Positions 21,585-26,608 of a stretch of DNA of 35,011 nt are shown in pieces. The notes beneath the pieces were generated by a model, which saw nothing but the letters and a program-made list of their open reading frames with translations, did no database searches and was not told the DNA's origin. Every line of letters begins with the position of its first letter. Within the stretch, counting starts at the first letter, position 1. Position numbers and translations under genes: made by a program. Origin of the DNA: Bacilli bacterium (lineage in GTDB: Bacteria > Bacillota_I > Bacilli_A > ML615J-28 > CAG-313); contig JAZOLP010000183.1 of NCBI GenBank assembly GCA_045653225.1, forward strand, positions 1-35,011, read 5' to 3'.

Positions 21585-22562
21585 TTGAGTGATTATCTAT
21601 TAGAAATAAAAAATTTATCAAAGAGTTTCGGAGAACATCGAGTTTTATCTAATATCAACTTAAAAATCAATAAAAAAGATGTTTATGGAATTTTAGGCTT
21701 ATCAGGTGCAGGTAAATCTACTTTAATAAGATGTATAAATGGTCTAGAAAAATTTGATGATGGAGAAATTTTATTTAAAGATAAAATAGTAACATTTGAT
21801 CGTGAATATCGTAAAAATGTTGCGATGATTTTCCAACAATTTAATTTATTAGATCAACGAACAGTTTTAAAAAATGTAGAACTTGCTGGAGAATTATTTA
21901 AAGACTGTAATAGACATGAAAAAGCTATAAAATATTTAAATCTTGTAGGATTGAGTGATAAACTTAATAGTTATCCGTCACAATTATCAGGTGGTCAAAA
22001 ACAAAGAGTTGCAATTGCAAGAGCATTAATGTCAGAACCTGAAATTTTATTATGCGATGAAGCTACTTCAGCACTTGACCCTGATACAACAAATCAAGTA
22101 CTTGCGTTATTAAAAGAACTAAATGAAAAATTAGGACTTACAATTATTATGATTTCACATCAAATGAATGTAATTGAAAAAATTTGTAATAAGGTAGCAA
22201 TTATTGATAATGCGAAAATTGTTGAAAGTGGTGAAACACAAGAGATTTTCTTATATCCAAAAACTGAGATTAGTAAAAAAATTATTTATTCTGGTCATAT
22301 TAATACAAAGAGTGATGATTCTAAATTACTTAAAGTAATATTTAATGGTGAACTTGATATGCCTTTAATTGCAAATATAGTTCAAGATTGTAATATTGTT
22401 TTATCTGTAATTTATGCGGATTCAAAAGTTGTAAATGGGCATGTTTTTGGTCAATTAATATTCAAAATGCCTGCTGATATTAATGATGTTTTAAAACTTC
22501 GTAAATATCTAGAATTAAAGAATATTAACTATAAGGAGGTGGATGCAAGTGAGTTTTTCTGA
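21585..22562 (+). CDS. metN: methionine ABC transporter ATP-binding subunit (TTG start)
   Basis: GLSGAGKS, LSGGQKQR, LCDEATSALDP, C-terminal NIL-like domain; Met T-box upstream. Confidence 0.92.
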   Translation: MSDYLLEIKNLSKSFGEHRVLSNINLKINKKDVYGILGLSGAGKSTLIRCINGLEKFDDGEILFKDKIVTFDREYRKNVAMIFQQFNLLDQRTVLKNVELAGELFKDCNRHEKAIKYLNLVGLSDKLNSYPSQLSGGQKQRVAIARALMSEPEILLCDEATSALDPDTTNQVLALLKELNEKLGLTIIMISHQMNVIEKICNKVAIIDNAKIVESGETQEIFLYPKTEISKKIIYSGHINTKSDDSKLLKVIFNGELDMPLIANIVQDCNIVLSVIYADSKVVNGHVFGQLIFKMPADINDVLKLRKYLELKNINYKEVDASEFF

Positions 22563-23217
22563 GATTTTTAAAATGGTTTTAGAAACTCTAGGAATGACAT
22601 TTATTTCATGTACACTTGCATATATATTTGGCCTTCCAATGGGTATTTTATTAAATGTAACTTCGAAAAAAGGAATTATGCCATGCAAATGGCTCAACAC
22701 AATCTTAAGTTTAATTATTAATATTTTAAGATCAATTCCATGTTTAATTATTGTTGTATTATTAATGCAAACAGTTCGTGATATTTTTGGTAGAGCCGTT
22801 GGAGAATGGTATACAATTATTATTCCATTATTTGCAACTTCATTTGGATTTGTTTCTAGAATGGTAGAACAATCTTTATCAGAAGTTGATAATGGTAAAA
22901 TTGAAGCTATCGTTTCACTTGGTGCTACAAAATTCCAAATTATTACAAAAGTGCTTTTACCAGAAACTAAGGCTTCATTAATTTCTGGTCTTGCTGTAAC
23001 TTTAGTTTCTATACTAGGTTACACATCATTCGCATATAATATTGGTGCGGGTGGATTAATTGCTGGTATATGGTCATTCTATTCAAAGAATACCGGTAAT
23101 TATTTAAGTGAACCATTCTTCTGGATTATGATTATTATTGTTATTTTAATTGTTCAAGGTATCCAAGAATTAGGTTTGTTAATTTCGAAAAAATTAGATA
23201 AAAGGAGAATATTATAA
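22549..23217 (+). CDS. metI: methionine ABC transporter permease (probable GTG start)
   Basis: ETL.M, NILRSIP, EA..SLGA, LLPE, GAGGL motifs; AAGGAGGT is 8 nt before GTG 22549. Confidence 0.9.
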   Translation: MSFSEIFKMVLETLGMTFISCTLAYIFGLPMGILLNVTSKKGIMPCKWLNTILSLIINILRSIPCLIIVVLLMQTVRDIFGRAVGEWYTIIIPLFATSFGFVSRMVEQSLSEVDNGKIEAIVSLGATKFQIITKVLLPETKASLISGLAVTLVSILGYTSFAYNIGAGGLIAGIWSFYSKNTGNYLSEPFFWIMIIIVILIVQGIQELGLLISKKLDKRRIL

Positions 23218-24050
23218 TGAAAAAAAGAATATTAAGTTTAATTGCAATATTAATTTTATGTTTAACTGTAGGTCTTACAGGTTGTAAAAAGGATGAAAAA
23301 ACAATTTATGTTTGTGCAAGTGAATTACCACATGCTGATATTTTGGAAAATGCTGTTGCTCCAATTTTAAAAGAACAAGGATATACTTTAAAAGTTACAG
23401 TTATTGACTGGACAATTCAAAATAATGCTGTTGCAAATAAAGATTATGATGCAAACTATTTCCAACATGTTCCTTACCTAGAATTATATGAAGGTGATAT
23501 TAAATTATTTGCTACATGTAAAGTTCACTATGAACCTCTTGGAATTTATAGAGGAAAAGCTACTGGCGAATTAACTGAAGGTAAAACATTTGCTATTTGT
23601 AACGATGAATCAAACGCTATTAGAGCTTTAGAATTATTAAAAGATAAAGGTGTTATTGAAACTCTTCCTGTTGATGCTGAAGGTAAATTAACAATCACTG
23701 GTTCTAATTGGACTGCTGAAAATGGTGTAACTGTTACTTTAGTTGCTGAAGAATTATTAGCTGCTTCAATGCCTGATTTCGATTTCGTATGTCTTCCTTG
23801 TAATACAGCTTTAACTGGTAATGTTGATGCTTCATTAAAAGTTGCTAAAGAAGATAATGCTGAATTAGTTGCTGCTAAAGCAAATATAATTGCAGCAAGA
23901 GTAGAAGATTATAAAAATGATGCTGAATATAAGGCAAAAATTGATGCTTTAACTGAAGCTGTTCTTTCAAAAGCTGTATCAGATTACGTAAATCAAAAAT
24001 ATAGTGGTGCTATTACTTGTGATAGTAGCTCACAAATTGATTTAAGATAA
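23217..24050 (+). CDS. metQ: methionine ABC transporter substrate-binding lipoprotein (NlpA family)
   Basis: LTGC lipobox, PHADIL, DANYFQHVPYL, VHYEPLGIY, ND.SN..RAL. Confidence 0.92.
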   Translation: MKKRILSLIAILILCLTVGLTGCKKDEKTIYVCASELPHADILENAVAPILKEQGYTLKVTVIDWTIQNNAVANKDYDANYFQHVPYLELYEGDIKLFATCKVHYEPLGIYRGKATGELTEGKTFAICNDESNAIRALELLKDKGVIETLPVDAEGKLTITGSNWTAENGVTVTLVAEELLAASMPDFDFVCLPCNTALTGNVDASLKVAKEDNAELVAAKANIIAARVEDYKNDAEYKAKIDALTEAVLSKAVSDYVNQKYSGAITCDSSSQIDLR

Positions 24051-24071
24051 TTAAGAAAGAAATCGTTTTCA

Positions 24072-24123
24072 TTTGCATATTAATTTACACATATTGCAAA
24101 TTAATATATACTATTGGTATAAA
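24072..24123 (+). promoter_or_regulatory. promoter overlapped by tandem ARG-box-like operators
   Basis: TGCATATTAATTTA (24074-24087) and TGCAAATTAATATA (24095-24108) are 21 bp apart; TTTACA-17 bp-TATACT (24084-24112); alternative TGGTATAAA (24115-24123). Confidence 0.6.
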
Positions 24124-24124
24124 T

Positions 24125-24286
24125 AAACATTTGGAAAAGATAGGATTTATTCCTTGATTATAATTATGCGATTAGCTTTTAATTTTCACATAATTATAAG
24201 CTAGTTGCAAAGTAAGGCTTATAGTTTAAGCTTGAAAGTATGTATGCTGCACCTAGAAAAAGGAATATCTTTTTCTAGGTGTTTTT
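24125..24286 (+). ncRNA. unassigned structured 5' leader / candidate attenuator
   Basis: several hairpins, an AGTA/GAA internal loop, and a 13-bp terminator stem plus T5 ending 3 nt before the RBS. Confidence 0.5.
24250..24286 (+). terminator. terminator-like hairpin directly upstream of the RBS of the amino-acid ABC operon
   Basis: CACCTAGAAAAAG/CTTTTTCTAGGTG followed by TTTTT; AGGAGG at 24290. Confidence 0.75.
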
Positions 24287-24304
24287 AATAGGAGGTTTAA
24301 AATT

Positions 24305-25153
24305 ATGAAAAAATTATTTGTTTGTCTTGTTTGTGTGATCGCTGCTTTATGTGTTGCTTCATGTAATACAACTAGCAAAGATGTAGTTAAAGTTATCGAT
24401 ATTAAATTAACAGATGAAGAGTACGCATTTGCTGTTAAAAAAGGAAACACTGAATTATTAAATGATTTTAATGCATTCTTAGCTGAAATTCAAGCTAATG
24501 GAAAATTCGATGAAGTTGTTGCAAAATACTTCGAAAACAAAGGAACTAAAGTAGGCGTTGAAATTTCTATCGATAGCGTTGCTAATACTGAAGAAAAATT
24601 TGTAGTTGCTACTAACTGTCCTTTTGAACCATTCGAATACATTGGTGATGATGGTAAAGCTTATGGTATTGACCTTGAAATTGCTGCATTATATGCTGAA
24701 GCTAAAGGTTTAGAATTAGTAGTTAAAAATATTGCTTTTGATGCAATTTTAAATGATGTTAATGCAGGTTACTCTGATATGGGTATGGCAGGTATGACAG
24801 TTAATGAAGATCGTTTAGTATCAAATGATTTCACAACTGCTTACTATCAAGCTTCTCAAAAAATCATTGTAGCAGCTGATAATACAGATTTCGATAACTG
24901 TAAAACTGCTGAAGATGTTGAAAATGTAATTAAAGCTTTATCAGGTAAAAAGATTGGTTACCAAACTGGTACAACTGGAAACTGGTATGTAGCTGGTGAT
25001 GCTGACTGGGGATTTGATGGATTTGCTAATGTTGAAGCTAAAGGTTATAGTACAGCTCAACTTGCTATTCAAGATTTAATTAATGGTCAAATCTATGCAG
25101 TAGTAGTAGATGAAGCACCTGGTGCTGCAATGGTTAAAGCATTCAATAAATAA
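24305..25153 (+). CDS. polar amino-acid ABC transporter substrate-binding lipoprotein (family 3), circularly permuted; substrate possibly arginine
   Basis: VASC lipobox; TNCPFEPFEY, GIDLEIA, FDAIL, AGMTVNEDR, QTGTTG, VVVDE; the normally C-terminal EEYAFAVKKGN...KYF block comes first. Confidence 0.88.
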   Translation: MKKLFVCLVCVIAALCVASCNTTSKDVVKVIDIKLTDEEYAFAVKKGNTELLNDFNAFLAEIQANGKFDEVVAKYFENKGTKVGVEISIDSVANTEEKFVVATNCPFEPFEYIGDDGKAYGIDLEIAALYAEAKGLELVVKNIAFDAILNDVNAGYSDMGMAGMTVNEDRLVSNDFTTAYYQASQKIIVAADNTDFDNCKTAEDVENVIKALSGKKIGYQTGTTGNWYVAGDADWGFDGFANVEAKGYSTAQLAIQDLINGQIYAVVVDEAPGAAMVKAFNK

Positions 25154-25857
25154 TGGGTAAAAAGTTTCAAGTTTTTCTTGACGCTTTACAAAAAGAATAT
25201 TTCCAAAAATTACTTTTAACAGGTTTTAGAAACACAATTCTAATTGCTGTTTTAGGTTTATTAATTGGTATAATTTTAGGTACGATAATAGCGATGGTAA
25301 AAGTTGCTCCTAAATATAAATGGTACATGAAAGTTTTAAATGCTATCTGTAACGTTTATGTTGAGTTCTTTAGAGGAACTCCAATGACTGTGCAACTATT
25401 ACTAGCGTACTATGTTATCGTACCTTTAATTGGGCTTAAAGGTGTTGAAGCGTTAAATGTCGGTATAATTGTATTTGGATTAAATAGTGCTGCTTATGTA
25501 TCTGAGATTATGAGAGGCGGAATTAACTCAGTAGATTCTGGTCAGTTTACAGCTGGAAGAGCACTTGGTTTAAGTTATCCAATAACAATGATTAAAATAG
25601 TAATTCCGCAAGCAATTAAAAATATTTTACCTACACTTGGTAATGAATTTATTACTTTAATTAAAGAAACATCAGTTGTAAGTTTTATCACTGTAGCTGA
25701 TTTATATAATGCATTCTATAGTATTAGTTTAAGTACTCATGATACAATTATTGCGTATCTTGCAATGGCATTAATTTATCTTGGTCTAGTATTACTAATT
25801 ACTTTATTAATTAAAGTATTAGAAAGGAGTTTAGGCAAGAGTGATCGACGTAATTAA
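25153..25857 (+). CDS. polar amino-acid ABC transporter permease
   Basis: [37 protein letters not shown]. Confidence 0.92.
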
Positions 25858-26608
25858 TTTAAAGAAAAGTTTCGGTGATTTACATGTTTTGCGTGGTGTT
25901 AATTTATCAGTAAAAGATGGAGAAAAAGTTTGTGTGATTGGTCCTTCAGGAAGTGGTAAATCAACTTTACTGTATTGTTTAAACTGCTTAACAGATCCAA
26001 CAAGTGGTGAAATCATTTATGAAGGTAAAGATATTACTAATTTCAAAGTAAATATCAATGAAGTAAGAGAATCTATTGGAATGGTTTTCCAACAATTTAA
26101 TTTATTTAAACACAAAACTGTTTTAGAAAATATTATATTAGCTCCTGTTCATATTCAAACAAGATACTTAAGAAAAGGTATTAAAGACTTTGGTAATTCT
26201 AAAAAAGATATAATTGAAAATAATAAAAAATATGCGATGGAGTTATTAGAGAAAATTGGTCTTGCTGATAAAGCAAATGCATATCCTTCTACTTTATCTG
26301 GTGGACAACAACAAAGAATTGCAATTGTAAGAACATTAGCTATGAAACCTAAACTAATTTTATTTGATGAACCAACAAGTGCATTAGACCCAGAAATGGT
26401 AAAAGAAGTTTTAGATTTAATAAAAGAAATTGCAAAAGGTAATATTACAATGATTATTGTAACTCATGAAATGGGCTTTGCAAGAGAAGTTGCAGATAGA
26501 GTTATTTTCATGGATGAAGGTGTTGTACTTGAAGAAGGTACTCCAGAACAAATTTTTGATAACCCACAAAAACCAAGAACAAAAGAATTTTTAAGTAAAG
26601 TTTTATAA
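25841..26608 (+). CDS. polar amino-acid ABC transporter ATP-binding protein (GlnQ/ArtR-like, GTG start)
   Basis: [44 protein letters not shown]. Confidence 0.93.

Follow-up and report, generated by a model that had tools for sequence, protein, structure and literature searches.

The nearest precedent for the protein described here is TpMglB-2 (Tp0684) of Treponema pallidum, likewise a natural permuted binding lipoprotein of a transporter of the ATP-binding cassette (ABC) type. In the excerpted text of its report this sugar-binding protein is still able to bind its ligand and to close, homologues with the same topology occur in treponemes and Gram-positive gut bacteria, most of them tethered, and the class 'Type Ic / Cluster Bc' is proposed (PMC4990184). 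Two general models are given for natural permutations, duplication and fission/fusion, of which duplication predicts partial and tandem intermediates; the standard example of the duplication route is the DNA methyltransferases, a family in which several orders and partially duplicated intermediates are on record (PMC3320104, likewise in excerpt). Here we describe a gene for a 282-residue protein, P0001, which lies in a stretch of 35,011 nucleotides (hereafter the window) from a Bacilli bacterium (GTDB lineage Bacteria; Bacillota_I; Bacilli_A; ML615J-28; CAG-313; GenBank assembly GCA_045653225.1, contig JAZOLP010000183.1, positions 1 to 35,011 of the forward strand). P0001 is a complete circular permutant of a family-3 substrate-binding protein (SBP), as had been proposed from the letters of the window and their translations without database searches (the sequence-only reading).

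Our overall reading, to which we give a probability of roughly 0.8, is that P0001 is a working permuted amino-acid receptor made by duplication and trimming, that this process was repeated in its clade, and that the permutation is near-neutral for function. According to this model, P0001 would capture the substrate, anchored by its lipid, for an ABC importer of polar amino acids with one permease gene and one ATPase gene. Its chain, with the predicted two-lobed 'Venus flytrap' fold, runs from the anchoring cysteine through a moved block and a 20-residue linker into the canonical N-terminal part, as far as the last helix of the small lobe. An alpha-amino acid would be bound between the lobes by R170 and D269 and be delivered to the permease as in canonical relatives.

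Chain order, predicted fold and function of P0001

The Pfam family PF00497 (SBP_bac_3) matches P0001 in two stretches with 97.6 bits, where the cut-off is 26.4, and a six-frame search of the genome agrees. Residues 27–77 correspond to the hinge strand and helices with which canonical proteins end, and residues 98–282 to canonical residues ~1–175. In a phmmer comparison with the Protein Data Bank (PDB), AncQR (4zv1) was matched twice in swapped order, query 101–278 to chain 14–176 (independent E-value 1.1e-19) and query 27–76 to chain 182–231 (independent E-value 1.1e-4), and T. maritima ArgBP (6svf) gave a swapped pattern of the same kind. Two swapped matches to canonical family members were what the sequence-only reading had led us to expect, and the motifs quoted there are all present in the order given. 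The best PDB match overall (E 4e-37) is the tandem of substrate-binding domains (SBD) 1 and 2 of GlnPQ (6h30), in which query 39–271 is colinear with chain 186–395, a stretch that begins in the last part of SBD1, crosses the linker between the domains and enters SBD2. In the close canonical relative P0123, a block of the moved type directly follows the segment that ends P0001.

Identity to canonical family-3 / cluster F proteins is 26–34%. The chain order of the canonical PF00497 members is not that of P0001, as seen from the swapped matches and from a structural coverage confined to model residues 95–282. A colinear full-length alignment to a canonical protein, the result named beforehand as speaking against a permutation, was absent from the 60 PDB sequences listed of the 75 matched by phmmer, and likewise from the listed Foldseek rows and the 50 VIA rows. 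The complete circular permutation is supported by the swapped phmmer matches, by sequential structural alignments that stop at residues ~95–282 against ~1–175, and by hundreds of colinear homologues (see below).

An AlphaFold2 model, calculated from a 42-sequence alignment of colinear homologues, has a predicted local distance difference test score (pLDDT) of 94.1 and a predicted template modelling score (pTM) of 0.84, with pLDDT values of 97–99 for the moved block and 91–96 for the linker. The secondary structure elements of the model follow the canonical order, rotated. Strands 28–31 and 38–45 and helices 49–64 and 67–76 make up the moved block, the C-terminus of canonical proteins. It comprises the strand that completes the small lobe, the second of the hinge strands and the pair of terminal helices of the large lobe. 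The remaining part, residues 98–282, supplies the beta-alpha units of the large lobe, the first of the hinge strands and the greater part of the small lobe, and ends after the last small-lobe helix.

The model was compared with structures in the PDB by Foldseek and VIA-align. The best matches were ArgBP, AncQR, AncCDT-1, ArtJ, GlnBP, HisJ and LAO, at VIA Z scores of 16–18.5 and root-mean-square deviations of 1.4–2.2 Å over ~170 residues, the ligand-bound forms matching best. Nearly always the aligned range was model 95/98–282 against chain ~1–175, with few rows starting near residue 50; both aligners are sequential, so that a partial range is expected for a permutant. The class II / cluster F two-lobed fold with two hinge strands is predicted for P0001.

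The sequence-only reading had held that the permutation moves the lipid anchor to the other lobe, and the model supports this. Its last residue aligns in VIA to residue 171 of GlnBP, which lies inside the small domain of that protein (residues 90–180; the large domain comprises 5–84 and 186–224, according to the excerpted text of PMC13229503). Both new termini therefore map to the small lobe, and the lipid tether would be attached there as well, whereas the termini of canonical proteins are on the large lobe.

The operon of SBP, permease and ATPase is intact, and its genes are joined by overlapping stop and start codons. The ratio of non-synonymous to synonymous substitution rates (dN/dS) is 0.08–0.09 against three orthologues from the same genus, which are 92–93% identical, and 0.07–0.13 within the moved block, which shows purifying selection on the gene. 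R170 aligns to the Arg of the 'GMT...R' motif and D269 to the canonical Asp (4zv1, 6svf). Their counterparts in the GlnBP and LAO structures are the residues that hold the alpha-carboxylate and alpha-amino groups. In 42 sequences of type A, as we call the chain order of P0001, D269 is invariant (42/42) and R170 is kept in at least 90%; E38 and Y40 of the moved block are invariant in the same set. As to the ligand, the named NCBIfam equivalogs GlnH, ArtJ, ArtI, HisJ and cystine all scored far below their cut-offs for P0001, and the sub-threshold NCBIfam matches were to binding proteins for Lys/Arg/Orn, Gln, cystine, Arg and His.

The assembly is fragmented (207 contigs) and the protein ends without the canonical C-terminus, as would be the case if the open reading frame (ORF) were a decayed tandem remnant or a product of faulty assembly or gene calling. 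This explanation is effectively refuted by the low dN/dS, the intact ribosome-binding site, lipobox and operon, the confident fold prediction and the recurrence of the same order in 13 of 106 related genomes and at 117 named loci. In addition, a contig from an independent DNA run spans positions 24262–24414 and differs at 2 places; it runs from the ribosome-binding site across the signal peptide and reaches the moved block. Parts of the stretch occur in 20 of the 24 sequencing runs listed, and only one contains half of the sampled words; the four runs examined yielded short contigs with holes and no single piece across the whole gene. Near-identical contigs from one RNA library cover 24516–25081, and in another RNA library a ~95%-identical contig of 979 bp bridges the SBP/permease junction; such libraries can contain DNA, and the evidence for transcription is weak. 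The gene in the window is probably a functional member of the permuted branch.

Distribution of type A and of other chain orders

More than 100 full-length homologues colinear with P0001 were found by word-indexed protein search at 64–93% identity. Their records are named 'transporter substrate-binding domain-containing protein' and come from metagenome-assembled genomes (MAGs) of Erysipelotrichaceae, Bacilli and Clostridia. An exhaustive search of 1.84 billion representatives returned many single-stretch colinear matches down to 33% identity. Chain orders were classified by applying the type A alignment profile to every fetched protein of 255–345 residues. In this seed-biased sample of 441 classified proteins, 396 were type A and 35 had the canonical order, while types B, C and D accounted for 7, 2 and 1, respectively. 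A lipobox pattern together with a complete chain was present in 386 of the 396. The survey of distribution that the sequence-only reading had proposed thus finds the type A order to be widespread.

In the order to which the host belongs, a type A match that is colinear was obtained in 13 of 106 species genomes, and in 4 of the 13 its reading frame continues into the permease as a fusion. A 399-genome sample of the host's phylum showed type A in 4 genomes only, all of them from the host's order. Among named genome loci, mostly from Clostridia, type A was found at 39 of 80 in one scan and at 78 of 80 in another, in which the two others were one canonical locus and one cut at a contig end; the latter scan covers its best 80 loci, and at least one contig is common to both lists. 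The arrangement of SBP, permease and ATPase was found at all 160 loci where the contig allows. Type A also occurs in an isolate, Acetivibrio straminisolvens JCM 21531. At that locus (L023 4849–5558) the downstream permease is split into ORFs of 120 and 131 residues, which may reflect a frameshift or a sequencing error in the draft. The spread of type A is patchy, few genomes in the host's order and phylum having it, yet it is common in Clostridia MAGs; this may hint at horizontal transfer between gut bacteria.

Type A proteins fused in frame to the permease, 509–546 residues long and with the lipobox kept, were found in four cases (G026, G027, G013 and G039, the last at L173 940–2484 (-)). Further fusions of this kind are P0145, P0148, P0154 and P0177, and one fusion belongs to the host's own genus. 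A fused receptor would have a tether at either end. The TAATG overlap of stop and start codons is, in the window, the sole difference between the split and the fused state; in relatives this junction is read through. Two other proteins carry long additions: in P0233 (553 residues) ~300 residues of repeats precede a type A domain, and P0220 (716 residues) continues for another ~380 residues after a type B domain.

The break points of the other orders are given here in P0001 numbering. Type B chains start at ~215, in the middle of the small lobe and before the 'KIGYQTGTTG' strand; they were found in 7 representative clusters and in 5 genomes with names (Christensenellaceae, Eubacteriales), and an AlphaFold2 model of this type is confident (pLDDT 90.3, pTM 0.81). 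Classification with the profile places 5 of the 80 loci of one scan in type B. Type C chains start at ~116, before the first large-lobe helix, and form 2 clusters that are 68% identical to each other. The single, unverified type D chain starts at ~156. Proteins of the canonical, B, C and D orders each have a lipoprotein signal peptide or lipobox of their own. Proteins of different order can be closely similar: the canonical P0123 shares 63% and 58% identity with P0001 in two swapped segments, and the canonical P0185 shares 71% and 70% with the type A protein P0166.

Three host-order genomes encode more divergent lipoproteins of ~278 residues (L170 970–1806 (-), L171 910–1749 (-) and L172 702–1598 (+); 66–78 bits) in which the 'C-terminal' block and linker stand in mid-chain and profile positions 30–205 fall at protein ~71–259. 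Their chain end looks like a strand of the 'KIGYQTGTTG' type. These proteins may represent a possible sixth order with a further break point in the small lobe, on a mapping that is not confident.

Proposed routes of origin

For the phylogeny of chain orders, the separately matched segments were set in profile-column order, which makes the alignment blind to chain order. Rows were left out when the protein was outside 255–345 residues, when fewer than 220 profile positions were covered or when fewer than 200 columns were filled; the canonical paralogue from the same genome as P0001 (L001), with fewer than 200 merged columns, was among those left out. With type A thinned at 80% identity, a FastTree tree of 159 rows requires 17 order changes, and so does an IQ-TREE tree (LG+C20+F+G4) of 72 rows, in which type A was thinned at 55% and canonical proteins at 50%. 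If only branches with an SH-aLRT support of at least 95 are counted, the minimum is 7 changes for type A, 6 for the canonical order and 3 for type B, and pairs of different order are joined in the IQ-TREE tree at 97–100 support. Placing 23 canonical rows in one clade was rejected by the approximately unbiased (AU) test (delta lnL 407.7, p-AU 6e-30). We consider it rather probable that the clade is a natural hot-spot of permutation, in which at least four orders were interconverted at least seven times via partial duplications, returns to the canonical order included.

A protein that resembles an intermediate is P0267 (387 residues, with signal peptide), which consists of a partial unit from the middle of the small lobe to the C-terminal helices, a linker and a complete canonical unit. 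The additional piece at its N-terminus shares 51% identity with the C-terminal part of the same protein, and P0267 trimmed at its end would be type B. Tandem relatives were also found at 35–38% identity, namely SBD-SBD (473–503 residues) and SBD-SBD-permease (738 residues). Tandem and partly duplicated forms, which the sequence-only reading had suggested looking for as intermediates, exist both as SBD-SBD proteins and as the 1.5-domain P0267, and they fit the model of permutation by duplication as it is set out in the excerpted text of PMC3320104.

Further traces are found in the linker. The six canonical proteins nearest to type A (59–69% identity) have C-terminal tails of 10–17 residues, and these tails are homologues of the linker of type A in its first half. 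In P0185 the tail equals the linker of P0166 residue for residue, and the N-terminus that follows the lipobox matches that linker's second half. Below 48% identity, most canonical proteins stop 4–7 residues past the last helix; exceptions with long tails among these distant proteins are P0264 (32), P0211 (10) and P0176 (9). The nested canonical forms may well be secondary returns, either from type A or from a duplicated ancestor.

The type A order would accordingly have come about by a partial internal duplication followed by trimming at both ends, and the same route would have been taken repeatedly in the clade, also back to the canonical order. The sequence-only reading had suggested the trimming of a tandem two-SBP ancestor. 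A tandem or duplicated precursor would fit the junction match in 6h30, the tandem relatives and P0267, and the equal identities of both segments in close pairs of different order point to the duplication of one gene. In a stricter version of a tandem origin, type A would be a chimera of the C-terminal part of SBD1 and the N-terminal part of SBD2 of a GlnP-like tandem whose outer parts were trimmed, as might be read from the colinear best PDB match over the SBD1/SBD2 junction, the 35–38% identical tandem relatives with and without permease and the type A proteins fused directly to a permease. However, both segments are equally identical in pairs of different order (71%/70% and 61%/58%), which argues for duplication of one gene rather than for a chimera of two diverged SBDs, and the extra piece of P0267 copies its own C-terminal part; recent events thus look like self-duplication, the deep origin apart. 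We regard the chimera as possible, though doubtful.

Fission/fusion is the other general model for natural permutations in the excerpt of PMC3320104; here the gene would have been split and its pieces re-fused in the opposite order. No free gene for a ~60-residue block was found beside the 160 loci, in scans of ORFs from 120 residues upwards, and the partially duplicated and tandem forms that the duplication model predicts do exist. A fission/fusion origin is therefore very improbable.

It may also be asked if the permutation is adaptive, that is, if termini on the small lobe alter the geometry of the tether or of the link to the permease, docking, export or lipidation, and if the switches of order were selected. 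The mapping of the new termini to the small lobe, the lipobox kept in all chain orders and the occurrence of type A both free and permease-fused even inside one genus are in keeping with this idea. It was also raised by the authors of the TpMglB-2 study, whose excerpted text describes mostly tethered relatives in treponemes and Gram-positive gut bacteria (PMC4990184). Yet four or five break points, in both lobes, coexist in one type of SBP-permease-ATPase operon, and orders flip back to canonical, which is more like tolerance than like a directed optimum. An adaptive origin thus appears unlikely, and we prefer repeated duplication and trimming with a permutation that would be near-neutral for function.

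Several points weigh against this preferred reading. The neutrality is itself an assumption. The placement of residues 27–77 in the canonical C-terminal position would follow from sequence homology, secondary-structure order and AlphaFold2 confidence. The sample of classified proteins used types A, C and D as seeds, and most sequences come from metagenome assemblies. Type C comprises 2 clusters only and is absent from the best 80 species-representative genome loci; type D is one unverified protein on one 2.65-kb contig, and no second was found among the best 120 homologues. In the phylogeny, the group for the AU test was chosen after the first tree had been seen, support is below 80 for 30 of the 69 inner branches, and the trees are unrooted, drawn from the midpoint and contain no outgroup, so that the direction of change depends on the tail argument.

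Features of the locus and comparison with known systems

The features of the gene and its operon are collected in Table 1. The number of promoter-like sites in the region equals that expected from shuffling, which makes the upstream site weak evidence for a promoter. The hairpin, a strong one, may terminate the met operon that lies upstream, or it may serve the SBP operon as an attenuator or a riboswitch-like leader. Rfam searches of the region and the 5' leader gave no match at the gathering score and, at E<=5, chance-level matches only (E 1.5–3.7). Cys20, presumably the lipidated residue, is the same in all 42 type A sequences aligned (42/42).

Table 1. Coordinates of the SBP gene, its parts and the neighbouring elements within the window.
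Feature	Position	Strand	Basis or remark
Promoter-like site TTTACA, 17-nt spacer, TATACT	24084..24112	+	consensus scan, 10/12 matches
Terminator-like hairpin, 15 pairs then T run	24249..24282	+	7 nt 5' of ribosome-binding site
Ribosome-binding site AGGAGG, 9 nt 5' of ATG	24290–24295	+	direct sequence reading
ORF, 282 aa, open (P0001)	24305–25153	+	read from sequence
Lipoprotein signal peptide, residues 1–20, lipobox V-A-S-C	24305..24364	+	pattern test
Short tether, residues 21–26 (NTTSKD)	24365..24382	+	pLDDT 72–82 for residue blocks 11–30
Moved block, residues 27–77	24383..24535	+	matches 4zv1 chain 182–231, 6h30 chain 414–458
Linker, residues 78–97 (20 aa), old C-terminus to old N-terminus	24536..24595	+	pLDDT 91–96
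Canonical N-terminal part, residues 98–282	24596..25150	+	structural alignment, PF00497 match
Stop codon TAA, overlapping permease start as TAATG	25151..25153	+	direct sequence reading
Permease, 234 aa, sole membrane subunit gene of operon	25153..25857	+	PF00528 (BPD_transp_1), E 3e-21
ATP-binding subunit, 255 aa, GTG start overlapping permease gene end	25841..26608	+	PF00005, E 4.8e-37

A gap of 254 nucleotides (24051–24304) separates the SBP gene from a metQ-like gene upstream. This is part of a complete metNIQ-like, methionine-type ABC operon on the same strand (21585–24050), which encodes an ATPase with NIL domain, a permease and an NlpA/MetQ-like lipoprotein. The only other PF00497 protein of the genome, L001 on contig C3 (1456–2280 (-)), has 274 residues and the canonical order and precedes an unusually long permease (365 residues) and an ATPase.

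Binding proteins of this fold are standard models of ligand-induced domain closure and serve as biosensor scaffolds with termini moved by hand. A natural family with relocated termini offers break points and linkers for biosensor design that have been tested by evolution, and the close relatives with other break points and the duplication intermediate add to this resource. It is also a natural experiment on how chain connectivity bears on folding, hinge dynamics and transporter docking, on the constraints that a membrane tether imposes on a receptor, and on the frequency and route of circular permutation in evolution. If the reading of the clade as a hot-spot holds true, nature would here offer what is rarely seen, a set of permutants of a single fold whose intermediates still exist. 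The finding is larger than the sequence-only reading had it, in that the order is widespread and several other chain orders occur in the clade. Annotation by profiles splits such proteins into two partial matches, and annotation that is aware of domain order would be needed to recognise them.

Compared with the canonical family-3 / cluster F proteins (GlnBP 1wdn, ArtJ 2q2a, HisJ/LAO, ArgBP 6q3u, AncQR 4zv1), P0001 shares the Pfam family, the predicted fold, the Arg/Asp pair and the operon partners; it differs in chain order, the last ~50 canonical residues coming first. With the tandem SBD1-SBD2 of GlnPQ (6h30) it is colinear over the junction, and relatives of P0001 are likewise fused to the permease. 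GlnP-type receptors have two complete SBDs fused to the permease, whereas P0001 is a separate lipoprotein of 282 residues with one set of elements; each profile position is covered once and the ORF is separate, which sets it apart from the GlnP-type tandems. Circular permutants of amino-acid-binding proteins with an AncQR-type scaffold have reportedly been engineered as Förster resonance energy transfer (FRET) sensors (Whitfield 2015, Clifton 2017). These are man-made and indicate that the fold tolerates moved termini, and AncQR is the closest single-domain PDB match of P0001.

A full-text literature search, with subscription journals outside its scope, returned no description of a natural permutation in family-3 or amino-acid-binding proteins. 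The main text of two permutation surveys (PMC13552848, PMC9763678) mentions no periplasmic, solute-binding or ABC-transporter proteins, and their supplements may list cases. In the literature searched so far, a very large permuted branch of a well-known family has thus gone unremarked.

The DNA methyltransferases, as presented in the excerpt cited above, are unrelated in fold and function; in the clade of P0001 the changes of order occur between proteins that are still 60–70% identical. TpMglB-2 belongs to Type I / cluster B and has, according to the excerpt of its report, one order and a permuted part poorly similar in sequence to the canonical part (PMC4990184). All family and structure matches of P0001 are to Type II / cluster F, which places it outside the class 'Type Ic / Cluster Bc'. 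Unlike TpMglB-2 as described there, the clade of P0001 is of Type II / cluster F, both parts of the chain are clearly homologous to canonical proteins, and several interconverting orders are found.

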